Shown in pieces: positions 11,292 to 47,038 of a stretch of 64,000 nt of DNA. The stretch covers positions 2,968-66,967 of the IMG/VR virus record IMGVR_UViG_3300045283_000349. The stretch is one strand, 5' to 3'. The position numbers and the translations under genes are program-made. Under the pieces are notes generated by a model that saw only the letters and a program-made list of their open reading frames with translations, did no database searches and had not been told where the DNA came from. The stretch comes from a virus. Each line of letters starts with the position of its first letter. Position 1 is the first letter of the stretch.

Positions 11292-11667
11292 GTGGGACCT
11301 GGGGACCTGGGGGACTACTTGTTGACTTGTTGACAGGCAGGACGCCGTCAACTGCCAGGTCACTCTCAACTGGTCGAAGGGGTTCTTCAAGGTATCGACC
11401 ACCCGAAGCCGCCGCGCTCGCCACCAGCGCGCAGGCTGTGTGCGCGAGGCCCTTGCCGGCGAAGGGCAGGCCGTCCTCATGCCGGTCCACGAACCGCCCG
11501 CAACACGCGCACAGGGCCGCGCAGCCCTCGCACAGGGGCACCTCGCCGGCCAGCAGGTCGGCCGCATGGCCGCATCGGCAGAGGGCCCGAACGCGGCCCT
11601 TGCCAGCGCAGGCGTCGCATTTCGCACCAAGGCAAGCGGGGCAGGTGATTTTGACTCCTTTTGCCAT
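11227..11667 (-). CDS. Cys-rich Zn-finger protein (3' end uncertain)
   Basis: GGGAGG SD; CxxCxG repeats and further CxxC; tail runs through a repeat array and into the next gene. Confidence 0.55.
   Translation of the reverse strand: MAKGVKITCPACLGAKCDACAGKGRVRALCRCGHAADLLAGEVPLCEGCAALCACCGRFVDRHEDGLPFAGKGLAHTACALVASAAASGGRYLEEPLRPVESDLAVDGVLPVNKSTSSPPGPQVPHAKDVATHPGSNASGRVHLDL
11294..11337 (+). repeat. 8-bp unit array A
   Basis: GGGACCTG GGGACCTG ... TTGACTTG TTGACAGG. Confidence 0.55.
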
Positions 11668-11769
11668 CGTGGTCCTCCCTATCGGGGTTGCGCATCTATG
11701 AGATGCGCTCGCATGCTAATAGGTGCGTGTTTGATTTTCAAGCCCGAGGTGTGCTATTGCAGCTTAGAG

Positions 11770-11970
11770 ATGGCATTAGCATCCAAGAGCACCCGGCCCA
11801 AGAAATCGCCCGCGGTCCGCCGCTGGACCATCCAGTTCGACAAAGAGCGCGGCGACGAGATCCTGGCCCTGGCCACCAAGCGGGGCACCAAGCCGGCCAT
11901 CTGGATCCGCGAGGCCGCCTTCGAGCGCCTGCAGCGAGACGTTGCAGACCCGGTCCCGCCCCGCCGGTAA
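11770..11970 (+). CDS. ribbon-helix-helix (Arc/CopG-like) regulator
   Basis: RWTIQF strand followed by two helices; TTGATT-N18-TATTGC just upstream. Confidence 0.6.
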   Translation: MALASKSTRPKKSPAVRRWTIQFDKERGDEILALATKRGTKPAIWIREAAFERLQRDVADPVPPRR

Positions 11971-12085
11971 AAGGGGGCATGGTGGTGGGCGGTCCGCTCT
12001 TCAGCACCACCCCCCAGGCGCCTCAGCGCCCACGCCGACGAAACATTCGAAACACCACCTTGCATGTTCCTGCCGGGTGCCGCGC

Positions 12086-12445
12086 ATGACTATCAAGCTG
12101 CGCAGCCGCCTGCTGGGCGCCCACGTGCATGTAGGCGTGTTCCTGGGGACCGACGCCGATCACCTCCAGAACAGCGGCGATCTCGTCATGGACGTGGGCC
12201 AGTGGTGCAAGCTGACCATCCTGCTGGCCTCGGGCCATCTCGAGAGCCGGCGCGGCCCCGATCCTGTCGACTTTCACTTCGAGGACGCCGACCCCCGCCT
12301 GACTCAATTCCTGCTCGACCACTGCGACCGCGCTCGGCAGATGCTGGCCGAACGCGCCGCCCAAGAAGAGGAAGACCAATGCCCAAGCCCAAACCCGTCA
12401 AGACCCGACGACGCTTCACCACCCAAGAAAAGCACGGCCTCGTGA
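12086..12445 (+). CDS. hypothetical protein
   Basis: ATG 12086; coding-like codon use. Confidence 0.6.
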   Translation: MTIKLRSRLLGAHVHVGVFLGTDADHLQNSGDLVMDVGQWCKLTILLASGHLESRRGPDPVDFHFEDADPRLTQFLLDHCDRARQMLAERAAQEEEDQCPSPNPSRPDDASPPKKSTAS

Positions 12446-12777
12446 TCCGACTCCGGACCCGGCCCAGCAACGAGACGATCAAGGCGTTCGCGGCAAAGCA
12501 CGGCGTCACGCCCGGCGTGCTGCACTACTGGAACAACGACCCGCGATTCGCCAGCAATGATCCCGTGGGCGAGGCCCGGTCCGTGCGGAAGAACACCGGC
12601 AAGCGCGGCCCCGGCCGGCCCAAGGGCTCCCAGAACGGCGTCAGCCAGGGCAACGACCGTCTCGTGCAGGCCGAGCAAGAGCTGGAGGTCTTGCGGCTGA
12701 TGGTCGAGTTGGCCTTCGCGCAGGGCTTTCTCAAACTGTCGAACCGGATGCACTTTCTGCAGGGGGGGCCGCGGTGA
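12379..12777 (+). CDS. transposase-type HTH protein with AT-hook
   Basis: RRRFTTQEK...FAAKHGVTPGVLHYW; KRGPGRPKGS; C-terminal coiled coil; no catalytic domain. Confidence 0.6.
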   Translation: MPKPKPVKTRRRFTTQEKHGLVIRLRTRPSNETIKAFAAKHGVTPGVLHYWNNDPRFASNDPVGEARSVRKNTGKRGPGRPKGSQNGVSQGNDRLVQAEQELEVLRLMVELAFAQGFLKLSNRMHFLQGGPR

Positions 12778-13085
12778 TCAAGCTCGACGTGCCCGACGCC
12801 AAGGACGATCCAGAGCGGGGTCCCGGTTACACCGTCCAGGAGGTCTGGGCCTATGTCGCCGTGGATCCTGAGACTGGGTCCGAGGGCGTGATCGCGGTGG
12901 GGGGCACCGTGCTCGGCGAGCGCACCTTGCTACCGTTGGTGTTCACCGACAGGAAGCGCGCCTTCTCGCCCGCGATGCGCGAGCATGCGATCCGCGCCGG
13001 GCGCATGGACCGCAAGGAGGTGCGCTTCCTGCACTTCACCAACCGCGAGAAGGTCGAGACCGTGTACGTTCCGCCGGGGGCATGA
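12774..13085 (+). CDS. hypothetical protein
   Basis: GTGA-coupled 103-aa ORF. Confidence 0.65.
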   Translation: MIKLDVPDAKDDPERGPGYTVQEVWAYVAVDPETGSEGVIAVGGTVLGERTLLPLVFTDRKRAFSPAMREHAIRAGRMDRKEVRFLHFTNREKVETVYVPPGA

Positions 13086-13089
13086 CCAA

Positions 13090-13794
13090 ATGAACGAGAG
13101 GGCGCTTCCCGACTCTGCCGAAGGCGCGGCTTCGCTCCTCGCCATGGCCAAGGAGCGCGCTGAGCGCGACATCGCGAAAGGCGCCGAGATGATGGCCAGC
13201 GCCGTGATCTGCGGCCTCCGCGATTCGAAGACCGGCAAGACCCTGGACAAGGCGGGTCTGACGTTCATGATGATCACCCCAGACTGCTTCGACCCTCGCC
13301 GTGGTGGGCAGCGGTCCGTCGCAGCCATGCTGAGACGGACATGCATGATGGCTGACGCCGTTGGCTTCGTGTTCGCGAGCGAGATCTGGAAGCTCCCTCG
13401 GCGCGACATCATGCCGGTGGATTTCTCCGAAGACCCCGAACGCCAGGAGGCCGTGCGGCTGCAGTTCGAGCACCGGCCGAGCGGACAGTACTTCGTCGAG
13501 GAGGCGCTGGTAATCCGGGACGGCGACAAGGCCAGCCTCGGCCCCTGGGAGCGGGAGGTTCTCGGCGGGCCATCGTTCCTGTTCACTGAGAAGCTGCGGA
13601 CAGCCGAGCAGCACGGCCTCGCCGCACTTGCGGCGTCGGCTGGGCCGTTGCTGCCCGCGGAGCGTTCGGCCCGTCTGATGGCAGCGGCAGCCAATCTGGC
13701 CCGGCTCTTCCCCGACGAGCGCCGCAACCTGATCGCCGAGCTAATGGTGTTCCTGCGCGGGGCTTTGGAAGAGCGAGGGGTTACTTTCGAGTGA
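13090..13794 (+). CDS. hypothetical protein
   Basis: ATG 13090 after upstream stop. Confidence 0.65.
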   Translation: MNERALPDSAEGAASLLAMAKERAERDIAKGAEMMASAVICGLRDSKTGKTLDKAGLTFMMITPDCFDPRRGGQRSVAAMLRRTCMMADAVGFVFASEIWKLPRRDIMPVDFSEDPERQEAVRLQFEHRPSGQYFVEEALVIRDGDKASLGPWEREVLGGPSFLFTEKLRTAEQHGLAALAASAGPLLPAERSARLMAAAANLARLFPDERRNLIAELMVFLRGALEERGVTFE

Positions 13795-13837
13795 GGGAAG
13801 ATGCAGCGCCGAGCGAGCCGAAGAAAAAGAAGGAGAA

Positions 13838-14284
13838 TTGACCATGGGTGACCGCCGTTTCCCCGTCGCCTACAAGGTGGTCGTCAACGAGAAGCTGACC
13901 GCGAACGAGCTGAAGGCCCGCGAGCTTGGCGGCTGCGACGCGGTCATCATCCATTCGATCATCTATCCGGCCGACGGCAGCCGCAGCGAGGTGATCATCG
14001 GCCATGATGGCCGGACCGACACGGACCTCTCCGAGGACGAGCTGTTCAAGTCCTGGGCGATGCTGGGGCATCGACTGGCCCAGTCCACCACGCTCGGCAT
14101 CGGCCGCAAGGCCCTCTGCGAAATGGTCCACGAGGCCCTCCGGCGGGTGGTGGCAGGCAAGTGCAACCATCCCGCCGTGTTCGTGAAGCCCACGGTCGTC
14201 GACGACGACACCGAGGTCATGTGCTGGCTCTGCCAAAAAACCGGTCGGAGCTGTGACGGAGGTTTAGCCTCCGACCTGTTGTAA
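13838..14284 (+). CDS. hypothetical protein
   Basis: AAGGAG SD; 148 aa. Confidence 0.65.
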   Translation: MTMGDRRFPVAYKVVVNEKLTANELKARELGGCDAVIIHSIIYPADGSRSEVIIGHDGRTDTDLSEDELFKSWAMLGHRLAQSTTLGIGRKALCEMVHEALRRVVAGKCNHPAVFVKPTVVDDDTEVMCWLCQKTGRSCDGGLASDLL

Positions 14285-14316
14285 CGCGAATTACCACGTG
14301 TCCGATATAAAACATT

Positions 14317-14565
14317 ATGTCAACTAGCGACCCAGATCTGATCAACGGCCTGGTCAACCGCATGAAGGATGCGGCCACCGGTCCCGATGGACGCATCGAC
14401 GCCAAGGCGGTGGTCGTTGCGTGCAGCAAGCTCGCGATGCTGGTGCTCATCGAGATGTCCAAGCGTGGCCCCGAGGGGCTCCGCGAGGCGACGGCTGGCG
14501 CCAGCATCGCAGCCTTGGGTTTCCGTGGCCTCGCCTTGGACCTGGAGCAAGGGCGCCCGTCGTGA
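14317..14565 (+). CDS. hypothetical protein
   Basis: AT-rich TATAAA just upstream; 82 aa. Confidence 0.6.
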   Translation: MSTSDPDLINGLVNRMKDAATGPDGRIDAKAVVVACSKLAMLVLIEMSKRGPEGLREATAGASIAALGFRGLALDLEQGRPS

Positions 14566-14726
14566 AGACGATCTCCCGGATCGCGATCGACGACGCCTGC
14601 GACCTGTGCGGGCCCACCGCCAAGGGCCGTCTGGGCATCCTGATCAAGGTCCGCGGGCTGTTCTTGGTGATCTGCCAGCGCTGCATCGAACGAGCCGCGG
14701 GGCTCCTGCGAGGTGATGCCACATGA
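14562..14726 (+). CDS. small CxxC...CxxC protein
   Basis: GTGA-coupled; CDLC...CQRC. Confidence 0.55.
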   Translation: MKTISRIAIDDACDLCGPTAKGRLGILIKVRGLFLVICQRCIERAAGLLRGDAT

Positions 14727-14860
14727 GCAACGACTGCCCAGACGAGAAGTCCCGGAGCGGTGAAGACAACCGCCAGGAGGCTGTGCGTGGCGCAAGCATC
14801 GCAGCCCTCGGCTTTGCCGGCCTCGCCGTGGATCTGGAGAAGGGGCCGCCGCCGCAATGA
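14723..14860 (+). CDS. 45-aa peptide, partial paralog of 14317..14565
   Basis: ATGA overlaps at both ends; GASIAALGFAGLAVDLE. Confidence 0.5.
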   Translation: MSNDCPDEKSRSGEDNRQEAVRGASIAALGFAGLAVDLEKGPPPQ

Positions 14861-15556
14861 CAAGGGCTGCAACAGGAGAGCGCCGCTTTTCGGGCAGAGC
14901 TATACCGGCGGCCCTCGCGCTCTGCCCGAATCTTCGAGAGTTCCATCCCGAAAGCGCGACCGTGATCTACTTTCTATTGAAGGGACGCGAGGTCGTCTAC
15001 GTCGGTCAGACTAGAAACCTGCCCAGACGCGATCAAACCGATGCCCTAGATTTTTCCTGTGCGCATCGATTCGTTCGTCCCTCTCGTCTCGATTGACCGG
15101 CGTGTACAGGACGAAGTCGAACGCACCTTCATCGCGTGGCTGAATCCCCGGCTCAACAGGATGTGCAGTCCGGGCGATTACCACGCCCCTCCTCCGTACC
15201 TTGCCATGGGCTGCGGCAGCGCCGCAGAGGCTGCCCAACTGTCGCCGATCGAGGCGTCTCTGAGGGCAACATCGGCTGATCACCGCCTAGGCAAAACCAC
15301 TTGCCGGGGCTGCGGCCGGAGACTTCGCTTTGTATCCGGCGACGACCGCTGCAAGCAATGCTTCGGCAGGGTTGCCGGCGCCGAGGATCACGCAATGTGG
15401 AGGGCAGAGATCCAGCGTCTTCGATCACTCGGATTGCCCCACGTGCACCTGCGCGACCCAGAGAAATGGCGGGAATACCAGAATCAACCTTCGATCACGC
15501 TGGGACCGAGATGGGGCTACTTTGCGAAGGAGAAAAAGCGTGGGAGCCAGCCTTGA
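14857..15556 (+). pseudogene. GIY-YIG nuclease, split across two frames
   Basis: VIYFL...VYVGQTRNL..R in one frame, E..FI..LNP.LN in the +1 frame; break at about 15030-15060. Confidence 0.6.
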
Positions 15557-15580
15557 GTCGCGAGTCTACAGGGTAGGACA

Positions 15581-15943
15581 ATGAAGAACGAAGGTCTGTC
15601 CCATCACTGGACCCTGCAGTCATCCGAGGGCGCGGGCGGCGTGTTCACCATCGTCGACCGCATGAACAGCGTGGTAGGCACCGTCGAGTTCTGGGGCGGA
15701 CCCGAAGGTGAATCCGCACGCACCAACGCTGCGGCAATCGAGGAAGCTCCGGCGATGGTTCGCTTGTTGCGCGATTACTTGGAGACCGGCGCAATGAACG
15801 CAGAGCACGTCAGGCGAATCATCGCCCACGTCGATGCCCAAGAGGCGCCGCACATCGACACGCTCGAGGAGATACATCAGCGGGTTGACGAAGAGTTTGC
15901 GGCGGCGCGCTGGGCCTCTGGTGAAGGCAAGGACGATGTCTGA
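15581..15943 (+). CDS. hypothetical protein
   Basis: 120-aa ORF with SD. Confidence 0.6.
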   Translation: MKNEGLSHHWTLQSSEGAGGVFTIVDRMNSVVGTVEFWGGPEGESARTNAAAIEEAPAMVRLLRDYLETGAMNAEHVRRIIAHVDAQEAPHIDTLEEIHQRVDEEFAAARWASGEGKDDV

Positions 15944-16202
15944 CCACGAATGCCCTGACGAGATGGCGATCGCCGCCGAGGCCGGGCTCGAGCTGTTCCG
16001 GGTGCGTGCCCAAATCGGCCGGGCCGTACACCAGGAAGACCCGCACGTCATCATCGCCGCCATCGGCCTGCTGATGTGCGACCTGCTCGAGCAGGTCAGC
16101 AAAGCGGACATGGACGAGGACCTGCGGCAGCTTTTCATCGCGCAGGCGCGTGACCTGGGCGAGACCATCGTCGAGTCAACGAAGCGGCGCCGAAACCTTT
16201 AG
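15936..16202 (+). CDS. hypothetical protein
   Basis: AAGGA SD before ATG 15936. Confidence 0.6.
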   Translation: MSDHECPDEMAIAAEAGLELFRVRAQIGRAVHQEDPHVIIAAIGLLMCDLLEQVSKADMDEDLRQLFIAQARDLGETIVESTKRRRNL

Positions 16203-16226
16203 GCCGCGCCCGGGCCGGTGCAGGCT
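16191..16226 (+). promoter_or_regulatory. phage late promoter, copy 2
   Basis: CGAAACC TTTAGG N17 CAGGCT N7 ATG. Confidence 0.75.
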
Positions 16227-16233
16227 CGGGTGC

Positions 16234-16722
16234 ATGGACGAAGAGCTGATCACCCCCCACTTCCCGTGGTCCGGAACGCTCTGCCACGACGGCACGCCGA
16301 TCCCCGACGAGCTGAGGCCGAACGCGGTCCGCCTGGCCGGCCAGCTCGAGATCATCCGAGCCGCCTGGGCGCTGGTGGTGGCGCCCGCGTCGCCGGCGAT
16401 CATCCCGGTCTGCTGGTACAGGACCCCCGCGCACAATGCGGCCCTGCGCGAGGCCAAGCTGGCCCAGGGGCTGGTGCCGGGGACCGCGGTCAACAGCCAG
16501 CACATGACCGGGGGGGCCATCGACGCGCGGCCGGTGCGGCTGGCCGACCTGACCCGCTTCGAGGGCTGCATCGCCGATCTTCTAGCCCAGGGGCAACTGC
16601 CGCTGATCGGCGGCTGGGGCTTCTACTCACATCAATGGATTCACCTGGATGTGCGGCCGAGGCCGACCAGCGGTCACGTCGCGTTCTGGGAGGGCAACGG
16701 CGTCGCGAGCGAGATGGCCTAG
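16234..16722 (+). CDS. peptidase M15A-family Zn peptidase, probable endolysin
   Basis: YRTPAHN...SQH..G.AID...WIHLDVR. Confidence 0.85.
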   Translation: MDEELITPHFPWSGTLCHDGTPIPDELRPNAVRLAGQLEIIRAAWALVVAPASPAIIPVCWYRTPAHNAALREAKLAQGLVPGTAVNSQHMTGGAIDARPVRLADLTRFEGCIADLLAQGQLPLIGGWGFYSHQWIHLDVRPRPTSGHVAFWEGNGVASEMA

Positions 16723-17186: not shown

Positions 17187-17452
17187 CGCCGGCGGCGCCC
17201 CGGCAGCGGCGGCTCGATACGGCGGGCCGTGTCGTGCAGCTTGCCAGCCCGCTCGATCAGGTGGTCGGCGGCCTTGCGCAGCTGCTGCGCCACGAACGAT
17301 GCGGCGGGGCTGCCCTCCGTCCTGGCCTTCACCACCGAGGCCCGCAAGTTCTTCTCGTCCTCTCGGAGCTGGCGCCAGAGGGCCAGCAGCACGTCGGCGG
17401 CCGCCTCGAGCTCAACCGAGACGTTCGGTTCGGTCACTTCATCTTTTTCCAC
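17183..17452 (-). CDS. hypothetical protein
   Basis: helical 89-aa ORF. Confidence 0.55.
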   Translation of the reverse strand: MEKDEVTEPNVSVELEAAADVLLALWRQLREDEKNLRASVVKARTEGSPAASFVAQQLRKAADHLIERAGKLHDTARRIEPPLPGRRRR

Positions 17453-20900: not shown

Positions 20901-20936
20901 ACTCTACGGGGCCGGGACGGCAGCCTAAAGGTTTCG
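20901..20936 (-). promoter_or_regulatory. phage late promoter, copy 3
   Basis: CGAAACC TTTAGG N17 TAGAGT N6 GTG. Confidence 0.75.
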
Positions 20937-20976
20937 TTGACCTATTGAGCTATGGACCTGGGTACCCGTGGACCGG
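20937..20976 (+). repeat. 8-bp unit array B
   Basis: TTGACCTA TTGAGCTA TGGACCTG GGTACCCG TGGACCGG in exact 8-nt phase. Confidence 0.7.
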
Positions 20977-20994: not shown

Positions 20995-21633
20995 TCAGTA
21001 AGCGCACTCGTCGCAGCTCGCCACGCAGAGGATCCGCGAGACGTCGTGATAGTCGGCCGTGTACGAGCCGGGCGGGCTGGCCTTGGTGCAACCGCTGGCC
21101 GGCTCAGGGGCAGCTTTCGAGCCAGTCGCGCAGGTGGCGCAGCGGCTGCCGTCCTTGCGCTGCCAGCGGAAGTAGCCGGGGACACCCAGGTCAGCAACGC
21201 CGCAGCTGCCCGTGAACTGGACCCCGTTTTCGCAGCCCGGGTAGACCACATGCGCGGGCGGGTCGGCGTCGACCATCACCACCGGCGGGGTGCCGCCGTC
21301 TGCGGCGCCGGCGTCCGCCGCGCCCGTTTGCCCGCCGGTGCCCGGCATCGCGTCCGGCGCGGCCGGCAGCGCGTCCGGGGCCGCTTCCCCGCCCTGGCCA
21401 CCCTGCCCGCCCTCGCCCGCCTGCGCGCCGCCTGTGCCCGTTTCCGGGGGCGTGGCGACGGGATCCTTCATGACGACCGGCTTGCCCTTCTCGGGGTCCT
21501 TCTTCACGTCGGGCATCGCGCCAACGCCCGCGTCACTTTGCAGCTCGGCGACGGGCGCGGCGGCGTCCGTCGTGGACATGTCGCAGGCGGCGAAAAGCAG
21601 TGCGGCGAGGGCGATAATGCGGCTCTTGTTCAT
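20995..21633 (-). CDS. lipoprotein with low-complexity linker and Cys-rich C-terminal domain
   Basis: signal peptide with lipobox LFAA-C; G/A/D/P-rich linker; 8 Cys in the C-terminal domain. Confidence 0.75.
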   Translation of the reverse strand: MNKSRIIALAALLFAACDMSTTDAAAPVAELQSDAGVGAMPDVKKDPEKGKPVVMKDPVATPPETGTGGAQAGEGGQGGQGGEAAPDALPAAPDAMPGTGGQTGAADAGAADGGTPPVVMVDADPPAHVVYPGCENGVQFTGSCGVADLGVPGYFRWQRKDGSRCATCATGSKAAPEPASGCTKASPPGSYTADYHDVSRILCVASCDECAY

Positions 21634-29382: not shown

Positions 29383-31041
29383 TCAACCGATCGCGGGGTT
29401 GCTGAAGCCGATGCTGGTGGTGATGTGTTTGAGGTAGGCCTTCGGGATCACGCGCACCGTGACCGGCTGGGAGGCGCCCTCCAGCAGGTTCGCAGTCCGC
29501 GACATCACCACCTGGGCCGACGAGGCCATGCCGGGCGCGATGAGGCCGGCCCTCAGCTGGCTGTTGACGTCGGCCTCGAAGCGCTGGGCCTCTTTCTCAT
29601 CGATGAACCCGTTGGCGGCGATCGTCACCTCCTGGTTCAGGTACGGCAGCTCGGCCTGGCGGGTGATCCTGCAAGCCGTGTCCATGACCCGGCGGTTCAT
29701 GCCGTAGGTGAAGTCGGACCCGCCGGGCGCCATCATCCGGAAATTGGTGATGAAGTAGCCCTCTTTGCCCCGCTGCCTGGTGAGCGTGGTGAAGCGCTGC
29801 TCGTCGAGGCCCGGCGTGGCGCCCTCGTTGCGGTAGATCGAGGTGACCCCGGGCAAGGCGCCGCGGCCCACCCAGGCGGGATCCTCCTCCTGCGAGATGA
29901 GGGCGATCCGGGCCGCCACCACCCAGGCGCAGTTGCGGCGGTTGATCTTGGACGTGAGCGGCGAGACCAAGGCGGCGTCGCCCGCGCAGACCGTCACCCG
30001 CTTGGAGACGTAGGAGGCGAAGGTGCTGATCAGCACGCTGTCGGCCTCGGTCGTCGGGCACTCGGTGAGTGCATAGGTGTAACGGAATGCCGTCTCCATC
30101 CCGGTCAACTTGGTGTCCACCGCGACCGCCAAGGTGTAGGCGTTGGCCGCGCTGCTGGGCGCTCCCACGACGTGGATGTGATCCCACTCCGTGGCCTGGC
30201 CGCTGAGGACGTCCATGGCGCTGTTGACGTCGCTGACCGTGAAGGCAGCGGCCACCGAGGTGAAGCTGTAGGTGTCGCCAGCGGTGAAGGTCCCGGCGAA
30301 GGTCAGTACCAAGCCGGTGCCCGGGATCGCATAGACCCCGCCGCCCGGGATGGCGATGATCGGCGAGACGCTGTTGCCGCCGTCGGTGCTGTAGATGAAG
30401 GCGCCGACACCGAGGCCGCCCGCGGTGTTGATCTGGACGATCGCATCGAAGGCGTCGTCGGGCGACGAGGCCTGCGTGACGGTCGGGCCACCGCCCGCGT
30501 TGGTCACGACGCCGTTGGTCCCGACCGTGTAGGTGGCGTTGAGGACGTAGGTCCCCGCCGGGAACGTCAGGACGGTCAGTGTCCCGGGCACCAGGATCGT
30601 GGCGGCCGTCGGGACGGGCGCGCTGTAGGCACCGCCGTCCACGCTGAACTGCACCTGCGACGTGGCCAGGATGCCCGCGGTCGAGATCTTGGCCACGATC
30701 ACCCGGTCGGGCGCGAGGCTCACCGCCACGGTGCCTGTGCCGGGGCCCACGTGGGTGGTGCCGCCGCCGGTGCCGTTGACGCCCGCCGTGCCCGGCGTGG
30801 TGGGGTTCGCGGGGCAGGCATAGACGGGCCCCCCGGCGACGTTAAGCACCTGGCCGATGGCCTCGACCAGCGGCCCAGAGCCGAGGTCGGCCGAGAGCTG
30901 GTTGATGTCGCTGTACCCCTTGACCGTGTTGGGCACGCCCTTGCTGCAGATCCCGATCTTGGCCGAGGCGCCGGCGACGTTTGGCGGGAGCGTGCCGAGC
31001 GCCCCGTCCTCGATCGTCATTGTGATCCCTGGTAGTGCCAT
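29383..31041 (-). CDS. tail sheath protein (DUF2586-like)
   Basis: DGALG, LG.GPLVEA, LDEQRFTTL...G.FITN, RRVMD.ACR. Confidence 0.85.
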   Translation of the reverse strand: MALPGITMTIEDGALGTLPPNVAGASAKIGICSKGVPNTVKGYSDINQLSADLGSGPLVEAIGQVLNVAGGPVYACPANPTTPGTAGVNGTGGGTTHVGPGTGTVAVSLAPDRVIVAKISTAGILATSQVQFSVDGGAYSAPVPTAATILVPGTLTVLTFPAGTYVLNATYTVGTNGVVTNAGGGPTVTQASSPDDAFDAIVQINTAGGLGVGAFIYSTDGGNSVSPIIAIPGGGVYAIPGTGLVLTFAGTFTAGDTYSFTSVAAAFTVSDVNSAMDVLSGQATEWDHIHVVGAPSSAANAYTLAVAVDTKLTGMETAFRYTYALTECPTTEADSVLISTFASYVSKRVTVCAGDAALVSPLTSKINRRNCAWVVAARIALISQEEDPAWVGRGALPGVTSIYRNEGATPGLDEQRFTTLTRQRGKEGYFITNFRMMAPGGSDFTYGMNRRVMDTACRITRQAELPYLNQEVTIAANGFIDEKEAQRFEADVNSQLRAGLIAPGMASSAQVVMSRTANLLEGASQPVTVRVIPKAYLKHITTSIGFSNPAIG

Positions 31042-31059: not shown

Positions 31060-31087
31060 TTGACCTGTTCGTTGACCTGTTGACCTA
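31060..31087 (+). repeat. 8-bp unit array C
   Basis: TTGACCTG ttcg TTGACCTG TTGACCTA. Confidence 0.75.
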
Positions 31088-33386: not shown

Positions 33387-34310
33387 CTAGACCGTGACCG
33401 CTCGGATCGCGGTGAAGGGCAGGCCGTAGCCGGCCGCACCGCGGGCGTCCGAGCCGAACTCGTACTCCTTGCGGTAGAACACGTTGTCGAGAGACGCGTC
33501 CGTCCGGGTGATGAAGTCCGGCTCCTTGCGGACCTGCAGGATGATCGGCTTGAGCCGGGTCGTGCTGAGGAGGTAGTAAACCGTCGGCTCGTTTTCGAGC
33601 CGCGGAATCACCAGCACCTTCATCGGCCGGCCGCCCGCAATGCCCGCCAGCAGCGGGTTCGGGATGGCGGCGTTGTTGGACGCGACGACCGGCGCCATCG
33701 CCGTGGCAGCGTCCAGCGCGAGCGAGGGGGGCACCACGAGCAGGTCGGGGTAGATCTCCAACGACCGTCCCGACTCGCCCTTGAACGCCAGCATCTTGTT
33801 GGACAAGAAGGCCAGGTTCGTGGGGGTGATCGGCTTGGCCGTGAACAGGTTGGCGTACGTGCCAGCGCTGTCGTCGTCCAGGTTGATCGGGTGGTCGGTG
33901 TCGAAGAAGAACTGGCCGTCGAAGGCCGTGGTGGTCGAGCCCGCCTGCAAGCAGTCGAACACGAGGTTGTCCCACAGCGCCTTGGCCGCGTCGCCCAGCA
34001 GCTCGGCGTGCCGGCTGTAGATGCCGAACTGATCGTCTTCGATCTTGTTCCGTGAAACGGTGAAGCCGTCCTCCCAGTCCTTGTTGACGATCGAGTAGGC
34101 GCGGCTTGCCAGGTTGTGGAAGACCCGGGGGCCGATCCATTCCCGGAAGCCCGGGATCTCGGCCAGCCACGCGTACGTGTTCGACTCGGTCGTCGACGGC
34201 AACCGTTCGGCCAACTGCGGCCAGAAGATCGTCCGGTTGGCGAGGCCGAGGTCGAAGTCATTGTGGAACTGCGTGAAGAGGAAATTGAGCGATGCCGGTG
34301 TGATCTGCAT
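33387..34310 (-). CDS. major capsid protein (Mu gpT-like)
   Basis: Y.WL...PG.REWIG.R, RNKIEDDQ.GIY, DGQ.FFDTDHP, KP.I.Q.RK. Confidence 0.95.
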   Translation of the reverse strand: MQITPASLNFLFTQFHNDFDLGLANRTIFWPQLAERLPSTTESNTYAWLAEIPGFREWIGPRVFHNLASRAYSIVNKDWEDGFTVSRNKIEDDQFGIYSRHAELLGDAAKALWDNLVFDCLQAGSTTTAFDGQFFFDTDHPINLDDDSAGTYANLFTAKPITPTNLAFLSNKMLAFKGESGRSLEIYPDLLVVPPSLALDAATAMAPVVASNNAAIPNPLLAGIAGGRPMKVLVIPRLENEPTVYYLLSTTRLKPIILQVRKEPDFITRTDASLDNVFYRKEYEFGSDARGAAGYGLPFTAIRAVTV

Positions 34311-34762: not shown

Positions 34763-35401
34763 TCACTTCCCCTGCGCGGCAGCGTCGCGGCCGCAGACCT
34801 TTGCGATGTGGGCCTCGAGCGGATCGGGCATGCCGCCGCCTTCGACGTTCGGCGGCTTGAGGCCGCCCGGCGGGATGGCCACCTTGAGCGACAGGCAGGT
34901 CCGCAAAAACGCGATCCCGTCGTGGGTGATGCGCCCGCCGTTGAGCTTGAGCGCGTCCGCCTTGAGCTTGGTCCGGTCCGCCGGGGAGAGGCCCTTCGCG
35001 CTGGCCTCGTTGAGGACGCCCTCGAACTCGCCGCTGAGCTTCTCGTTTTCCAGCTCGGTGACCCGCGCCGAGAGCCGCTCGACCTCGCCGTGCGAGGCTT
35101 TCCAGGAGTGGATTTTTCCGATCGCCACCGCATCGCTGTCAGCGCCGGTGAGGCCGCGGACGTTGCTGCGGAACGTGGACAGGGCGGTGACCGCCGCGGT
35201 CCGATCGGGAGCGCCGGCCGTTGCACCCAGCGACAGCACTGCGGTCAACGTCTTGACCTCTTCGACGGCTGTCTGGCCATCGCCCGCGGCCGTTGACAGC
35301 TTCGCCGTCAGGTCGGCGTTGGTTGCCTCCAGCGCAGTCAGTTTTGCGGTGAGCTGCTCGTGCGCGGCCTGCAGCTCCTTGTAGAGCTTCTCGTAATCCA
35401 T
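34763..35401 (-). CDS. nested in-frame scaffolding protein (Mu gpZ-like)
   Basis: internal ATG 35401 preceded by GAGGAGG; coiled coil follows. Confidence 0.65.
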   Translation of the reverse strand: MDYEKLYKELQAAHEQLTAKLTALEATNADLTAKLSTAAGDGQTAVEEVKTLTAVLSLGATAGAPDRTAAVTALSTFRSNVRGLTGADSDAVAIGKIHSWKASHGEVERLSARVTELENEKLSGEFEGVLNEASAKGLSPADRTKLKADALKLNGGRITHDGIAFLRTCLSLKVAIPPGGLKPPNVEGGGMPDPLEAHIAKVCGRDAAAQGK

Positions 35402-35896
35402 GCTGGTCCCCTCCTCTGTTCCGGTCGTTTGTCTCCGCGAGGCCGCGACGAGCGGCGCGATCCCGCGCATGGCGGGGATATTCGTAAGCGCGAGGTTGAG
35501 GACCTCCTTGATGCGGCCCTCGTCGGTGTGTGAAAAAGCCGGCGAGAAGTAGCGGTACTCGCCCGACGACAGGTAGCCCGCGGCGCGGTCGGTCCACTTG
35601 CACTCGGTGGCCCACAGCTCGCCGTTTCGGATCTGCGGCACCCAGCTCATGCACGACGCCGGCGCCTCGATGGGCGGCTCGGTGAGCGCCTGGTGCTCGT
35701 AGTCCATGGTCAGGTCGACCTTGCGGCGCCCGTACGACTCCATCACCGTGCGGGCCGCTTCCTCGTCGAACGTGAAGTCGCCCTTCTCCGTCTCGTTCAC
35801 GCCGGCCCGGAAGATCCGGAACTCCGACGGCGGCACACGCAGCTCGAGCCCGACGAGGGCGTCGAACATCGTGGGCGCGGCGTAGAGCGGATTCAC
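34763..35896 (-). CDS. prohead protease / scaffold (Mu gpI)
   Basis: DYEHQ, APA..W, WT..A...L...EYRY.SP.F, ALTN.PA. Confidence 0.93.
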   Translation of the reverse strand: MNPLYAAPTMFDALVGLELRVPPSEFRIFRAGVNETEKGDFTFDEEAARTVMESYGRRKVDLTMDYEHQALTEPPIEAPASCMSWVPQIRNGELWATECKWTDRAAGYLSSGEYRYFSPAFSHTDEGRIKEVLNLALTNIPAMRGIAPLVAASRRQTTGTEEGTSMDYEKLYKELQAAHEQLTAKLTALEATNADLTAKLSTAAGDGQTAVEEVKTLTAVLSLGATAGAPDRTAAVTALSTFRSNVRGLTGADSDAVAIGKIHSWKASHGEVERLSARVTELENEKLSGEFEGVLNEASAKGLSPADRTKLKADALKLNGGRITHDGIAFLRTCLSLKVAIPPGGLKPPNVEGGGMPDPLEAHIAKVCGRDAAAQGK

Positions 35897-41888: not shown

Positions 41889-41903
41889 TGGGTTCCCAGC
41901 TTG

Positions 41904-41927
41904 TTGACCTGTTGACCTATGGACCTG
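41904..41927 (+). repeat. 8-bp unit array D
   Basis: TTGACCTG TTGACCTA TGGACCTG. Confidence 0.75.
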
Positions 41928-41930
41928 CGC

Positions 41931-41966
41931 ATCGTCTCCCGGTCAGCCCCGAGCCTCAAGGTTTCA
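41931..41966 (-). promoter_or_regulatory. phage late promoter, copy 5
   Basis: TGAAACC TTGAGG N17 GACGAT; short leader containing array D. Confidence 0.65.
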
Positions 41967-42677: not shown

Positions 42678-42684
42678 CGGGCGC

Positions 42685-44730
42685 TCAGAGTTCCTCGAGC
42701 ACGCCGAGGCGGCCCGCCATGTGGGCCATGATCTGCGCCCGCTCGACCACGCGCCGGAGCGCCGTTGCGTCGGCGCCCTTGTAGCGCCGGGTGAGGCGCG
42801 CCCTCAGATCGGCGGGGCTTGTGGCCTTGTCGACGTCCTCGAGAATGCCCGCGAGGTCCTGCTTGAGCGCCTGGGCGGCCCGCCGCTTGGCCGCCTTCTT
42901 GAGGGCATCGGCATACTTGGCGGTCCGCTTGTGGCCCGCCACCCCGGGACCTGGTGCCCCGCTGAGTCGTTCGATTTGCTCGTCGGGGTCCTGTTGACCT
43001 AGCGCCGTGGCTGTTGAAATGACTAGTTTGGCAAGGCCACTCTTCACACCTGGCGGCGTCGCCGCGCCGTCGGCCGGCAACTGCGGGGGCTCCTTACCAT
43101 CGGCCGGCAGCTGCGGCGGCGCTGCTGCTTGATCCCCTGCCCCGCTGGCCCCGTCCCCTGGCCCCGTCCCCGCCTCAGCCTGCGCCGCCGTGGCAACCGT
43201 GGCGGCATGTTTGGCCTGGAACTCGGCCACGGTCAAATCCCCATCGGGATTGCGGCCGCCGCCTTCGCCCTCGAGCGGTCCCATCCCGGCGGCCGCGCGC
43301 GCCTCGTTCACGGTCACGATCGCGCCCAGCGCGGACGGGGTCAGCGCCACGCGGCCACCGGCGCCTGGTGTCGCGCCCTCGTCCAGCTCGGCTGCGGCAA
43401 GCAGCGGGATTCCCCAGATGGCAGCGATGGCGTCCGTGTCGATCTCGAGGCCAGCCAGCTGCAGCGCCGTGACGGCCACGCCCACCGCCTCGAGCGTCTG
43501 CGCCTCTTTCAGCTCGTCCTCGGGCTCCTCCACTACGTAGCGCGCCCGCGGCGCCAGCGCCGGATCGCCATAGTTGCGCTCGGCCCAGTGGGTGAGCCCC
43601 TGCTTTTGCAGGGTGTCCGCGATCACCGCGTCCTCGAGAAGCTTGGTGAAAGCGACGCCGGCGTGGACATCGGCGGCAGCGCGTGAGCCTCCCTGCACCT
43701 CGGTGGTGAGGTTCTGGCCCAGGACTGTCACCGCGATGTTGACCTCGATCTTGCCGATCAGCCGCTCGAAGCCCTCCTCGCTGCGGCCCATGGGCTCGAC
43801 GATGCTGAACTTGTATCTTGGCGCGTCCTTGTCGCCGGTCACGGGCAGGAACAACGCGGTCTCGGATCCCCGATTGGCGACGTCCTGCATGACCTTCTGC
43901 TTTTCGTCGTCGGGCGCGTTGTCCGGCACCTCGAGCACGTCGGCGGGCATGCCGTGCTTTTCGCTGTAGCGGGACCAGTCGCGGTATGCCCACTGCCGGC
44001 ACAGGTACAGCATAGCCAGCGGGCGCAGCATGGCGCGCCGCCAAGGCGATCGGAACCCGTACGGCATGTAGATGATCCACTTGCCATCACTGCGGGCATT
44101 CTCCTCGGTCGAGGGCAGATCGATGAGGCCCTCCATGGTCCGCAGCTGGTAGATGCCCTTCTGGTAATTCCAGCGCAGGAACTGCGGGTGCCACACGCGC
44201 GTGGTGAAGGTCGAGAAGGTCGGATCGCTGTAGTCCCACATGATCTCGGCTACGCCGATGCCGAGAAGGCGACCCCAGTGCAGCAGCTCGGAGACCACGT
44301 CTTTGGGGAACATGGTCGACCACAGCCCGGGCTCGTCGTCGCTGCCCTGGATCAGCTCGGCGATCTTTTTGGCCTTGAGCTTGGGCTTGACCGTCGATGC
44401 CTTGATCGCCAGATCGGAGGCCACGAGCGCGCCCCAGCGCGTGGAAGTCGTGCCGCTGATCCGGTCATCCCTCAACATGGCGTCGGCCAGCTTGGCGGCG
44501 TCCTCGAAGGACGTGCCCTCCTCGAAGGTCCTCAACACCGACTTGATTTGGCCCACACGGTCCAGTTCGAGGAAGCCAGCCACCGGGGGCATCTGCTGCA
44601 GAGTCCCCGCGCGGATGGTTTCACGGGCGGGCGGCCGGGCCTTCAGGACGGTGACCGCCGCGCCATCACGGGCGGTCCCTGTGGCCACCACGGCCAACTT
44701 CCCTCGCTGCCTGTTCCTGCGCTTGGACAC
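42685..44730 (-). CDS. portal protein (DUF935, Mu gp29-like) with long C-terminal extension
   Basis: G..VAEI.W, W..Y.EK.GMP, VLGQNLTT..GGS.AA..VH; start placed at GTG 44730 from promoter spacing. Confidence 0.9.
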   Translation of the reverse strand: MSKRRNRQRGKLAVVATGTARDGAAVTVLKARPPARETIRAGTLQQMPPVAGFLELDRVGQIKSVLRTFEEGTSFEDAAKLADAMLRDDRISGTTSTRWGALVASDLAIKASTVKPKLKAKKIAELIQGSDDEPGLWSTMFPKDVVSELLHWGRLLGIGVAEIMWDYSDPTFSTFTTRVWHPQFLRWNYQKGIYQLRTMEGLIDLPSTEENARSDGKWIIYMPYGFRSPWRRAMLRPLAMLYLCRQWAYRDWSRYSEKHGMPADVLEVPDNAPDDEKQKVMQDVANRGSETALFLPVTGDKDAPRYKFSIVEPMGRSEEGFERLIGKIEVNIAVTVLGQNLTTEVQGGSRAAADVHAGVAFTKLLEDAVIADTLQKQGLTHWAERNYGDPALAPRARYVVEEPEDELKEAQTLEAVGVAVTALQLAGLEIDTDAIAAIWGIPLLAAAELDEGATPGAGGRVALTPSALGAIVTVNEARAAAGMGPLEGEGGGRNPDGDLTVAEFQAKHAATVATAAQAEAGTGPGDGASGAGDQAAAPPQLPADGKEPPQLPADGAATPPGVKSGLAKLVISTATALGQQDPDEQIERLSGAPGPGVAGHKRTAKYADALKKAAKRRAAQALKQDLAGILEDVDKATSPADLRARLTRRYKGADATALRRVVERAQIMAHMAGRLGVLEEL

Positions 44731-44737
44731 CGTTGCC

Positions 44738-44773
44738 AGCATGCCGACATGGCCACGGGCCCTCAACGTTTCG
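44738..44773 (-). promoter_or_regulatory. phage late promoter, copy 6
   Basis: CGAAACG TTGAGG N17 CATGCT N7 GTG. Confidence 0.72.
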
Positions 44774-44797
44774 TGGACCTATTGATTTGTTGGCTTG
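44774..44797 (+). repeat. 8-bp unit array E
   Basis: TGGACCTA TTGATTTG TTGGCTTG; imperfect inverted copy follows (44809-44826). Confidence 0.55.
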
Positions 44798-44833
44798 GCC
44801 GTAGACCCCAACCAACCAATAGGCCAGCCGTTT

Positions 44834-46237
44834 TTAGATGCGCCGGGGGGCGTGCACCGTGGGCAGGGGCCTACCGACTCGTGGTGCCGAGCCACTCAAC
44901 ATGAGGTGGGTTAGGGCCCAGACGTTGGCATCGAGCCGGTCGGGACTCTTGCGGGCCAACAGCGGGTTCCACGTGGTCATCTGGTCCTCGAGCCTTGCAT
45001 GCACACCGACGTGGTGCACCTCGCCCTTCTCGTAGAGCGTCGCGATCGGCTCGGCGCGGATGGCTTTGCCTCGCGATGCCGTGACGGCCTGGTAGGCCAC
45101 GGGCCGGTCGCGCGCGTAGGCCCGCAGGGTCGATCCCACCAGGGCGCCACCGTTGTTGACCTCGGCGATGATCTTGTCCATCTGCTGATCGTGGTAGGCG
45201 TCGACCGCGATTTTCGCCCACTCCTCGGGCTGGTAGTAGCCCGACAGGTCGCCCAGCACGAAGCCGTGCATGCCCTCCTTGTTCTGGCAGATGCAGCGGC
45301 CGACGCCCGCGTAGACGATGCCGGTCTCGGCGGTGAAGATCTCGGTCTCGGCGGCACGCTTGCGATCGGCCTCGTCGGCCGTGGCTGGATCGATCGCCAG
45401 CACCATGCGCAGCAGATCGAAGGGCGGCACGACCACGCGCGACTTTTCGATCGTCGACATCTTGAACATGGCGCCCGGCGTGTCGCCGAGTAGCTCGCCG
45501 CGGATCTCCTGCTGGCCAAGGCGCGTGCCCTCGAATTCGTCGCGGATCGCCTCGAAGAACTTGCGGTCGAGGTTCTTGGCATTGTCGTAGGTGCTGCCGC
45601 CCTGGACGATGCTGCCCGGGTTGATGACGAGCTGGCGGATCAGAGCCGTGGGCCGCGGGGTCATCGTGATCACCATCTGGGGGCTGTCGCCCCGCGGGCC
45701 GGTGATGCGGAGGGCGAGCCGGATCAGCTTCCAGGTCATCTCGGCATTTCGCCAAGACCCGAGCTCGTCGGCCCAGAGGTAGTCGTGGTTGCCACCGCGG
45801 GCACGCTCGGGCTCCTCGGAGCTGTAGAGATGGGCCACGGCGCCGTTGGGCCAGTGCAGCTCGCGGTCCTTGGCGATCCAGGTTGGCCGATCAATTTCCG
45901 GCGTGATGGCCAGGATCCCGCTCGGTCCCTCGATCATCAGCTTGCGGCCGTCGCCGAGGGTGGGGGCAACCAGCGCGATGTTGCGCCGCCGGCCCTGGGC
46001 GACCTGGGCGCGCACCGTCTGCGCACCGGTCATCGTCTTGCCCCAGCCGCGGCCGGCCTTGATGATCCAATAATCCCAGTCCTTCCTCGCCAGCGCCGCG
46101 CCCGGCTCGCCAGGCGGGATCTGCTCGGGCCGCGCCATCGAGGTCCAGTCATAGGCGTTGACGGCGCGCCGGTGGGCGGCCTGCCGTTCGGAAAGGATGC
46201 TCGCAACGAGCCGGAGGCGGGCAGCGAAGGCGGTCAC
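44834..46237 (-). CDS. terL: terminase large subunit
   Basis: AGRGWGKT Walker A, WADE Walker B, STYDN..NL, AIDPA, EVNNGG, SPDRLDA. Confidence 0.96.
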   Translation of the reverse strand: MTAFAARLRLVASILSERQAAHRRAVNAYDWTSMARPEQIPPGEPGAALARKDWDYWIIKAGRGWGKTMTGAQTVRAQVAQGRRRNIALVAPTLGDGRKLMIEGPSGILAITPEIDRPTWIAKDRELHWPNGAVAHLYSSEEPERARGGNHDYLWADELGSWRNAEMTWKLIRLALRITGPRGDSPQMVITMTPRPTALIRQLVINPGSIVQGGSTYDNAKNLDRKFFEAIRDEFEGTRLGQQEIRGELLGDTPGAMFKMSTIEKSRVVVPPFDLLRMVLAIDPATADEADRKRAAETEIFTAETGIVYAGVGRCICQNKEGMHGFVLGDLSGYYQPEEWAKIAVDAYHDQQMDKIIAEVNNGGALVGSTLRAYARDRPVAYQAVTASRGKAIRAEPIATLYEKGEVHHVGVHARLEDQMTTWNPLLARKSPDRLDANVWALTHLMLSGSAPRVGRPLPTVHAPRRI

Positions 46238-46968
46238 CGCAGCGTGGTTTTCCTGTTCATTGTCGCGCGCGCGGCCGCGAAAGCATCCTGCGCCTGCACC
46301 TCGATCTGCCGGACCCGCTCGTGGCTGATGCCCAGGTTCTTGGCCGTCTCCGAGAGCGACGAGACGCCGGCGGCGGCGAGGTCAAGCGAGCAGGTGTGCT
46401 TCATGTCCTCGAGCGCAACGCCTGGGTGATTCAGCCGGATCGCCCCGCTGGTCGCGTGCACTTCGAGGAACAGGTGGTGCCGGCAGCTGACCCAGGGGCA
46501 GGGGCGGATCCCGCCTTCGCATTCCTCGCGGCTCTGCGGCCGCGGGTTCTCCGCGAAGAGCGCGCGCAGCTGCAGCGGCGTCAGCTCGCCATCGCTGATC
46601 CCGTCGAGTGCGGTCTGGCTCTTGGCCGAGACCCGGCCGCGCCGGCCGATCACGGGCAGCTTTACGGTCCGCATCCGCTGCAACGGCGCCGGGCCGATCG
46701 CGAACGGCAGCAGGGATCCGCGCAACACCAACAGCTGCTCGAGCCGCGCGCGGCGCGGATGGCGGAACAGGAAGGGCGCGCGCGGCCGCCGCGCCGGCAG
46801 GGACGGATCGCGGTCCTCGCGCCGGATCAACGCCACCGCTGCAGCACCACGTAACCACGGCTGACAAGGCGGCTCGGGCGGCGGCGGGGCCATAGCATGC
46901 GGCCCGACCACCGCCAGCCCCGGGCGTACAGGCACCCACGTCTCAACTGGCTGACTCGCTGGCATCAT
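46234..46968 (-). CDS. sigma-70 region-4-type HTH protein with Cys/His cluster; candidate late activator
   Basis: RP..R.EC..G.RPCPWVSCRHHL...TCSLD...SLSETAKNLGISHERVRQIE; start uncertain. Confidence 0.75.
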   Translation of the reverse strand: MMPASQPVETWVPVRPGLAVVGPHAMAPPPPEPPCQPWLRGAAAVALIRREDRDPSLPARRPRAPFLFRHPRRARLEQLLVLRGSLLPFAIGPAPLQRMRTVKLPVIGRRGRVSAKSQTALDGISDGELTPLQLRALFAENPRPQSREECEGGIRPCPWVSCRHHLFLEVHATSGAIRLNHPGVALEDMKHTCSLDLAAAGVSSLSETAKNLGISHERVRQIEVQAQDAFAAARATMNRKTTLR

Positions 46969-46998
46969 GGCGTCACCCCCTTTCTCGATACCCATGTG

Positions 46999-47038
46999 GG
47001 TACTCGCTGACATGTGGACCTGTTGACTTATTGATTGT
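46999..47038 (+). repeat. 8-bp unit array F
   Basis: GGTACTCG CTGACATG TGGACCTG TTGACTTA TTGATTGT in 8-nt phase. Confidence 0.65.

Follow-up and report, generated by a model that had tools for sequence, protein, structure and literature searches.

Tandem octamer arrays at gene starts in the late region of a soil phage genome, and a sigma-70 region 4-like protein as their possible reader

The genome and its late region

Six short arrays of an 8-bp repeat are spread along the late region of a virus genome from soil, record IMGVR_UViG_3300045283_000349. The window analysed here is the 64,000-nucleotide stretch comprising bases 2968-66967 of this 66,967-bp record, and all feature coordinates are window positions. 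The record is classed as complete, with direct terminal repeats and 68% G+C, and was assembled from soil metagenome data. Most genes from about 47 kb down to about 8.7 kb read leftward, and the structural blocks among them are tightly packed. Mu-type head genes encode a DUF935 portal (42685-44766), a protease (34763-35896), a major head protein (33387-34310) and a minor head protein; the large terminase gene lies at 44834-46237, and a contractile tail is specified by a sheath gene (29383-31041) together with genes for tape measure and baseplate proteins. The closest named phage, judged by the portal protein, is Myxococcus phage Mx4 at 35% identity, and thus the phage probably has a high-GC soil bacterium, perhaps a myxobacterium, as its host. 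A megablast of 12 kb against 50,697 phage records gave no match.

The octamer arrays

The repeated unit is phased and 8 bp long, reading TKGACCTR on the + strand and YAGGTCMA on the coding strand. A preliminary description of this DNA, made from the sequence alone, had claimed six arrays on a single strand; all are present at the claimed positions, and all six are indeed oriented (-). Array 1 (11294-11337) contains, on the + strand, GGGACCTG twice, a degenerate stretch, and then TTGACTTG TTGACAGG, which are 4 bases out of phase with the first pair; its coding strand reads CCTGTCAA CAAGTCAA, a 12-nt degenerate stretch, and CAGGTCCC CAGGTCCC. Array 2 (20937-20976) has five phased units, which on the + strand are TTGACCTA TTGAGCTA TGGACCTG GGTACCCG TGGACCGG. 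There are three perfect units both in array 3 (31060-31087; + strand TTGACCTG, a 4-nt insert, TTGACCTG TTGACCTA) and in array 4 (41904-41927; + strand TTGACCTG TTGACCTA TGGACCTG). Array 5 (44774-44797) consists of three units, two of them degenerate in the window (+ strand TGGACCTA TTGATTTG TTGGCTTG), and array 6 (47007-47038) of four, two of them good (+ strand CTGACATG TGGACCTG TTGACTTA TTGATTGT). The arrays are thus degenerate, and the coding-strand logo over 21 units is Y-A-G-G-T-C-M-A, with T5 and C6 best kept (20/21 each), followed by G4 and A8 (18/21 each). By our own reading of the sequence, many units contain HincII-type GTYRAC sites.

The excess of these arrays over shuffled sequence, a check proposed in the preliminary description, is borne out. 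Every octamer was scored against TKGACCTR, runs being built from in-phase units that each match at no fewer than six of the eight positions, and for comparison the complete 66,967-bp genome was dinucleotide-shuffled 200 times and scored on both strands. Four runs of at least three in-phase units were observed, all on the + strand, against a shuffle mean of 0.05 and a maximum of 1. Exact TTGACCTR has seven matches, again all on the + strand, where 1.45 are expected, and seven were reached in none of 100 shuffles. Two-unit runs are at noise level, with 22 observed, a shuffle mean of 10.4 and a shuffle maximum of 19; since they are so common by chance, arrays 1 and 3 rest on their near-perfect units and extra copies. 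The octamer arrays are real, statistically solid and lineage-specific. The first four are spaced by about 10 kb, as had been noted (start to start, 9,643, 10,123 and 10,844 bp), and no explanation for this regularity was found beyond the block lengths of the late region.

Placement at gene starts

All arrays are confined to the late region, 11-47 kb, and none is found in the early regions. Each of the six lies at a gene junction, as had been claimed, and the gaps that hold arrays 2 to 6 measure 57-100 nt. About nine gaps of at least 45 nt exist in the late region; arrays 2 to 6 fill five of these, and the others are without an array.

The distance of an array from its gene was measured from the last good unit to the start codon. 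Array 1 lies only 2 nt ahead of the ATG (11291) of an 81-amino-acid (aa) HTH_17/excisionase-like gene. On its other side is a Cys-rich (CxxC-type) open frame of 146 aa (11227-11667, (-)), which formally runs through the array and overlaps the 81-aa gene; further upstream, a good sigma-70-type promoter (TTGAAA, 17 nt, TAGCAT) at 11713-11741 (-) is followed by a 19-nt palindrome. Array 2 occupies a 100-nt gap between a gene ending at 20995 and a baseplate-wedge-like gene (start 20894), 42 nt ahead of the start codon, and adjoins GAAACCTTTAGG (20924-20935). Array 3 precedes the tail sheath ATG (31041) by 18 nt, with a ribosome-binding-like GGGGGAA directly after it, and array 4 is 15 nt ahead of the ATG (41888) of a collagen-repeat fibre-like gene, with GAAACCTTGAGG at 41954-41965, 26 nt upstream of the array.

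Array 5 follows the large terminase stop (44834) and precedes the portal gene, 31 nt ahead of an in-frame portal ATG (44742), and adjoins GAAACGTTGAGG (44761-44772). It can pair with an inverted partner located upstream (about 44805-44830). The sequence TTGGTTGGGGT occurs exactly at 44805-44815 (-), in the arm that pairs with array 5, and again at 50928-50938 (-), upstream of the small gene before parA; when up to one mismatch is allowed there are five matches against 0.48 expected, including one at 49083 (+, 1 mismatch). Array 6 lies in an 86-nt gap that follows a 610-aa rep-like open reading frame (ORF), its last good unit being 46 nt ahead of the homologue-supported start (46968) of the gene for P0120, a protein discussed below. 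Between array 6 and this start is an inverted repeat with 6-bp arms (TACCCA / TGGGTA, 2-nt centre; 46989-47002), which is identical in a related contig, L001, and may be a separate operator. A scan for sigma-70-type promoters found none at any array, and one weak terminator-like site before array 6.

The position of the arrays relative to start codons bears on the possibility that they act in the messenger RNA (mRNA) rather than in the DNA. In such a leader, (YAGGUCMA)n would be an unstructured stretch before ribosome-binding sites, placed where a gap breaks translational coupling, and would serve as a ribosome standby or enhancer site, or as a site for an RNA-binding protein or nuclease. The strict gene orientation of all six arrays is consistent with this idea, as is the finding that arrays 1, 3 and 4 end 2-18 nt from start codons and adjoin ribosome-binding-like sequences. 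Array folding energies are not below those of shuffles (z -1.36 to +1.35; 0.28, 1.35 and 0.67 for arrays 3, 4 and 6), and the AGGU of each unit would be a short piece of Shine-Dalgarno-like sequence. However, arrays 2, 5 and 6 are 31-46 nt from the start codon, and array transcription is not established. In addition, a tandem periodicity of 7-8 bp is a known signature of DNA binders and points to these, and we know of no RNA-binding protein with an 8-nt period, although no literature search was made. A role in the leader is a lesser possibility, though a live one.

Orientation and a second motif

A 12-nt motif, GAAACSTTKAGG, is present in five exact copies, at 16192-16203 (+), 20924-20935 (-), 41954-41965 (-), 44761-44772 (-) and 50990-51001 (+), where 0.01 are expected; near-copies lie at 5097 (-), 35928 (-), 60795 (+) and 11385 (-). 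Each exact copy is co-oriented with the next gene, and in four of the five cases it is 18-30 nt before the start codon. The motif is directly downstream of arrays 2 and 5 and lies 26 and 47 nt upstream of arrays 4 and 1, respectively, the copy near array 1 having two mismatches; none is found near arrays 3 and 6. Its role may be that of a promoter core or leader element. Many -35/-10 registers around the arrays and this motif were inspected by eye, and none was consistent across sites. The motif had earlier been taken for a late promoter. As a motif it is real, but it is not late-specific, because copies also precede the rightward genes at 16234 and 51024.

The same two rightward copies (16192 and 50990) are preceded, 11-12 nt upstream and on the + strand, by a single GAGTCAAC. 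This is the array unit flipped to follow a rightward gene, and so lies on the strand opposite to the arrays. The orientation of every array (6/6) is also that of its downstream gene. The flipped single octamers before rightward genes thus indicate that the orientation of the unit tracks transcription and not the genome. Overall, TKGACCTR is found 14 times on the + strand and 4 times on the - strand, and the count becomes 4(+):4(-) once the ten array copies are subtracted.

These counts decide the fate of one option raised previously, in which the arrays are polar loading sites for a HerA/FtsK-like ATPase, similar to the FtsK-orienting polar sequences (KOPS). An 8-bp unit, the location of all arrays on one strand, and a HerA_C-like ATPase encoded at 57114-58919 are all in keeping with it. 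However, there is no strand skew outside the arrays, and the single unit-like octamers before rightward genes lie on the opposite strand. The KOPS-like reading is rejected on these grounds.

Orientation relative to transcription fares better as support for another of the earlier options, polar repressor sites similar to the stoperators of Cluster A mycobacteriophages. Each stoperator is a single site of 13-14 bp; there are at least two dozen per genome, located in both arms, and they are read by the immunity repressor. Like them, the sites described here are asymmetric, dispersed in short intergenic gaps, and in one orientation relative to transcription. In this model, a phage repressor would coat the arrays in a ParA-maintained prophage or early in infection, and so block initiation or elongation into the late blocks; the repressor could be either of two small HTH_17 proteins, a HicB-family protein, or some other immunity repressor. 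The presence of arrays on either side of the GAAACSTTKAGG motif would suit a roadblock better than an activator, the encoded ParA suggests a plasmid-like carried state, and the 81-aa HTH_17 gene directly after array 1 would allow autoregulation.

There is also a precedent for repression through direct repeats by a MerR/Xis-like protein. Gp36 of mycobacteriophage D29, a small protein of this kind, is described as binding direct repeats and lowering expression of the downstream genes, with one main site consisting of two 7-bp repeats 13 bp apart, or 20 bp start to start (PMC12266134). Two proteins of broadly this type (HTH_17) are encoded in the window. In contrast to the D29 site, as that account presents it, the arrays are contiguous, have an 8-bp rather than a 20-bp period, and occupy six sites. 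Furthermore, no repressor gene was recognised in the window, and the arrays differ from classical stoperators, which are single and far more numerous, in being tandem octamers at only six loci, all in the late region and none in the early regions. Repression of this type is a viable rival, given co-orientation in six of six arrays and their non-coding location, and is judged a lesser but serious possibility.

Arrays in relatives and in unrelated contigs

The only close relatives reached for a comparison of the arrays are the contigs L001 and L077. Of 29 metagenome loci retrieved with a portal profile, L001 (92%) was the single close fragment; the 17 IMG/VR loci reached 37% at most, and genomes yielded one distant locus. 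A sheath query returned the L077 contig again and nothing else. L001 (portal 92% identical in aa) retains arrays 4, 5 and 6, with array 4 identical as far as L001 reaches, and L077 (sheath 98% in aa) retains array 3. Neighbouring genes are 0.89-0.98 identical at the nucleotide level and the four intergenic stretches 0.885-1.0, so that the mere retention of arrays carries little weight.

More can be read from the differences within units. There are five of these, and all five are compatible with the consensus: two are C/T changes at the Y position, and in the other three the relative has the consensus base where the window is degenerate. In array 5, contigs from four other soil runs have T>C at 44786, and three of them (X2-X4) have T>C at 44787 as well; together the two changes restore a perfect unit. 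The number of units is constant across relatives. By eye, the hairpin at array 5 is shorter in L001.

In the distant relatives L030 and L031 (35-43% in aa), the sheath gene is joined tightly to the preceding gene, with no gap and no array, and thus the arrays belong to a sub-lineage. The expectation that relatives would keep them therefore holds for arrays 3 to 6 in L001 and L077, but not before the sheath gene of L030 and L031. Mx4 has no such arrays, a search of it giving 2 weak matches with 3 mismatches and 3 control matches. A 35-nt array query against cultured phages gave two chance-level matches and nothing else.

Within IMG/VR, a two-unit pattern has 38 matches, which by our own estimate is roughly chance, and the sole relative among them is L077. 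A three-unit pattern has three matches, L063 (7049-7080), L080 (3503-3542) and L086 (9819-9866), unrelated contigs in which the same octamer stands in 4-6 tandem copies. L063 has no protein similarity to the window; its array immediately precedes the ribosome-binding site of a gene that lies two ORFs upstream of a probable tape measure gene, an ORF of 1886 aa. The L063 array was considered as a host-level element. This idea was dropped: L063 is unrelated, L086 (52% GC) and L080 (48% GC) differ strongly in base composition from the window (68% GC), and the array in L086 is oriented opposite to the following gene. The tandem octamers of these three contigs are best taken as coincidental minisatellites.

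Their existence indicates that slippage can produce such tandem octamers, and the arrays of the window might likewise be functionless slippage repeats. However, debris of this kind would not be expected to keep a constant number of units between relatives or to change only in consensus-compatible ways, nor to build up six separate arrays from the same unit when the expected number of runs is 0.05. Functionless repeats, and with them the polar loading sites discussed above, are regarded as highly improbable.

P0120, the protein encoded after array 6

The gene for P0120 (46234-47013, (-), 259 aa) lies immediately upstream of the large terminase gene and overlaps its start by 4 nt. The true start is likely to be at 46968, since the majority of homologues begin near residue 17, and would give a protein of about 244 aa. 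P0120 contains a zinc-ribbon-like Cys/His motif and a C-terminal helix-turn-helix of the sigma-70 region 4.2 type. It matches Pfam Sigma70_r4 with 26.0 bits (cut-off 24.1), and the helix-turn-helix aligns over 25 residues to region 4.2 of SigA, RpoS, RpoH and RpoD chains (E 0.04-0.3) and to the same positions in the NCBIfam RpoH and RpoD models. Seventeen homologues share, without exception, residues C165, C172, C177, H180 and C208, as well as E232, R233, R235 and Q236 in the recognition helix; the position just ahead of this ER-RQ stretch is H in close homologues and R in those more distant.

Structural comparison is less informative. The AlphaFold model is poor, with a mean predicted local distance difference test score (pLDDT) of 49.7. 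The nearest Atlas structural cluster is that of AsgB of Myxococcota, with a TM-score of 0.39-0.44, under the usual bar of 0.5 for a shared fold. A Foldseek search of the model against the PDB gave nothing at E <=0.001, and a whole-protein phmmer search against PDB chains also gave nothing.

Homologues of P0120 are widely distributed. Contigs of about 65 kb carry both portal and P0120 homologues at 45-74% identity, and an IMG/VR profile scan for the family found 58 loci. Core-only homologues of 136-148 aa are encoded adjacent to and upstream of the large terminase in L039/L101, upstream of it with a 157-aa ORF between in L006, and in L007 upstream of the portal, at a distance of about 1.9 kb. 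At 11 of the 58 loci, the homologue is followed within 600 nt by the start of an ORF of 400 aa or more. One of these 11 ORFs, in L101, is the terminase already noted in L039; among the ten that were tested, two (L119 and L141) are large terminases, and the remaining eight comprise a methyltransferase, an SbcC-like nuclease, a helicase, an NAMPT and proteins of unknown function. Four terminase queries found a match at 7 of the 58 loci, three downstream of the homologue and four 3.5-6.6 kb upstream of it. The protein upstream of the large terminase in Mx4 is unrelated to P0120, and L031, a single case, has no Sigma70_r4 protein before its large terminase.

The position of P0120 raises the question of whether it is the small terminase, with the arrays as its recognition sites. 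P0120 lies in the small-terminase position, overlaps the start of the large terminase, and is adjoined by array 6; no separate small terminase was recognised in the window, and the same gene order is seen in L039/L101, L119, L141, L006 and L007. On the other hand, a genome is expected to have a single pac recognition region, within the small terminase gene or next to it. Six co-oriented sites at gene starts are unlike a pac or cos arrangement, and five of the arrays are up to 36 kb away from array 6. P0120 matches no PHROG terminase family, and only 2 of the 10 tested large ORFs after P0120 homologues encode large terminases. The wider zinc-ribbon/sigma-4 family is instead found among early, replication and DNA-metabolism genes, and before the large terminase only in some phages, a context that fits a regulator better than a small terminase. 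A pac-like role for the arrays is thus very unlikely. From its sequence and gene context, the P0120 family is characterised as one of general phage DNA-binding proteins, located in some phages at the early-late border, a position shared with the Ltr activators (PMC3753634).

In L119 (552-573) and L141 (4761-4790), where a gap separates the P0120-core homologue from the large terminase that it precedes, short direct repeats occur 15-65 nt after the stop codon of the homologue: two tandem copies of 11 nt in L119, and two copies of 12 nt with a spacing of 18 nt in L141. These recall the sites of the Ltr proteins considered below and may be due to chance.

The par operon and other genes

The ParA protein (49890-50657; AAA_31, 1.8e-31) is followed by a small basic protein, P0117, of 129 aa. 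Directly upstream of parA and overlapping its start is a gene for a 73-aa HTH_17/excisionase-like protein (50657-50875, (-)), which may be a regulator of the par operon. The preliminary description had proposed that the arrays are a dispersed partition centromere with a second role as a silencer of late genes: the 129-aa partner would bind the arrays, and ParA would segregate the prophage. Type Ib centromere-operators, such as those of omega from pSM19035 and ParG from TP228, and the MetJ operators consist of tandem 7-8-bp units, variable in number, to which their proteins bind cooperatively. The sites of omega are dispersed over several promoters, and type Ib arrays include the promoter of the par operon, where a centromere-operator of this type is accordingly expected.

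The arrays resemble these systems in being built from short tandem units of variable number, as is typical for targets of type Ib centromere-binding proteins, and the spacing of the first four by about 10 kb could be seen in the same light. However, no array is present in the par operon, upstream (50657-51034) or downstream of it, or anywhere between 48.9 and 51.1 kb; all arrays are in the late region. Their units are all direct and follow gene orientation, which partition does not require. Furthermore, a ribbon-helix-helix pattern had been read by eye in the sequence of P0117, and this was not confirmed: no Pfam or NCBIfam family matches, and a single-sequence model (mean pLDDT 66) is all-helical with no ribbon strand. 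The proposal is weakened to the point of being improbable.

A different repeat, the 11-bp unit TCAGTGGGACG, is present in 5.7 copies at 48196-48258 (Tandem Repeats Finder score 112-126), inside the 610-aa ORF (47100-48932) that has a weak match to a replication-initiation PHROG. These repeats look like iterons, or possibly a real centromere. The window also encodes a DnaB-like helicase, a RecE-like exonuclease, a QueD-like 6-pyruvoyl-tetrahydropterin synthase (2765-3178, (-)) and an N6/N4 DNA methyltransferase (62532-63728, (-)); its own DNA may be modified by the phage.

Possible activation of late genes by P0120

Protein binding at the DNA level is suggested as the most economical account of a contiguous 8-bp period. 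The arrays are probably cis-regulatory DNA sites, rows of two to five asymmetric octamers that a phage-encoded DNA-binding protein would read. The general idea put forward in the preliminary description, in which short tandem units and a phage protein control late genes, is still the likeliest class of explanation, but its three specific options have fared unequally. That description overlooked the sigma-70 region 4.2-type protein encoded directly after array 6.

The reading favoured here, which is put forward tentatively, is that the arrays may be binding sites for P0120 acting as an activator of late genes. Region 4.2 of sigma-70 is the module that reads the -35 hexamer. PMC3753634 says the same. 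On the + strand, T1, G3, A4 and C5 of the octamer are kept in 18-20 of the 21 units, and TKGAC matches the first five letters of the -35 hexamer; this apparent match between TKGAC and region 4.2 is the only sequence-specific link between the arrays and a protein that was found. In the proposed scheme, a small amount of P0120 would arise from read-through of the upstream rep-like gene and would bind cooperatively to the arrays. Bound P0120 would then switch on or boost transcription of its own operon, and would also act at five points of entry within the 36-kb late region, namely those of the portal, fibre-like, sheath, baseplate and Xis-like/RecE-like genes. Activation by P0120 would explain why an array precedes its own gene, why arrays head the late blocks, and why the core of the unit looks like a -35 element.

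Several observations weigh against this reading. The link between the unit and the helix-turn-helix was noticed after the fact. Arrays 1, 3 and 4 are only 2, 18 and 15 nt before start codons, too close for a conventional promoter to fit downstream of an activator site, and the -35-like core is on the strand opposite to a leftward -35, so P0120 cannot simply replace sigma region 4. The P0120 gene is downstream of array 6, inside the operon to be activated, and the ltr genes are upstream of their repeats. A search of the 58 P0120-core loci for TKGAC tandem arrays found 2 real clusters and 3 in reversed-pattern controls, and no non-coding tandem repeats were found near the P0120-core gene at these loci, only coding-type repeats with periods that are multiples of 3. 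The distant relatives L006 and L007 carry a P0120-core homologue and no array of at least three units. Other DNA binders are equally well placed: the 81-aa HTH_17 protein P0119 (11046-11291, (-); HTH_17/excisionase family), which is encoded directly after array 1 and is the second candidate binder, the 73-aa HTH_17 protein, and P0118, a 77-aa protein with a HicB-family match at cut-off.

A more specific form of P0120 activation can be imagined, in which a protein made of a zinc ribbon and sigma region 4.2 would serve as a free-standing "fourth domain of sigma" on arrays of an inverted -35 look-alike. There it would recruit or re-orient the host RNA polymerase at six late entry points, while being encoded in, and possibly filling, the small-terminase slot. 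This picture seems unlikely as a whole. If true, it would couple late transcription to packaging, and the AsgB-type family, with its wide distribution in phages (58 IMG/VR loci) and Myxococcota, would gain its first defined DNA target. The probability left over by the readings discussed here falls to some other explanation.

Comparison with known late activators

The proposed scheme would be a dispersed version of that used by the Ltr late activators of phages of Gram-positive bacteria (RinA, ArpU, LtrA/Sigma70_r4, LtrB and LtrC), which are described as binding 2-4 direct repeats of 7 nt and activating the late operon (PMC3753634). According to the same source, the repeats are next to the terminase genes, in a single block that follows the ltr gene directly and precedes a terminator and the terS promoter. 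As far as that account goes, there are three points of likeness: a sigma-70 region 4-like phage protein encoded at the border of the packaging genes; short direct repeats as its target, of 7 nt for Ltr and, as proposed, 8 nt here; and an outcome that is, or here would be, control of packaging and morphogenesis genes.

The differences, within the limits of the same account, are also clear. Instead of one repeat block after the ltr gene, there are six arrays over 36 kb, with array 6 before the P0120 gene; because that gene runs into the start of the large terminase, no repeat site can follow it. P0120, with 259 aa and a zinc-ribbon-like motif, differs from the Ltr proteins, whose size is about 15 kDa. 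Finally, three of the arrays abut start codons, and the phage probably infects a high-GC soil bacterium rather than a Gram-positive one.

AsgB of Myxococcus xanthus is a DNA-binding protein whose C terminus resembles sigma-70 region 4 (PMC3986340). Unlike P0120, it is chromosomally encoded and has 163 aa, and in the available text of that source its DNA targets are not defined.

Implications

The arrays are best filed under phage late-gene control by short direct repeats, and they constitute a compact, portable, orientation-dependent control element. If they are roadblocks for a repressor, they would represent a second, independently evolved system similar to stoperators. If P0120 reads them, they would show how the timing and distribution of late transcription are handled in a large non-model soil phage with no recognisable sigma factor or Q-type protein. 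They would also extend the Ltr paradigm beyond the phages of Gram-positive bacteria and supply a concrete DNA motif for the AsgB-type family.

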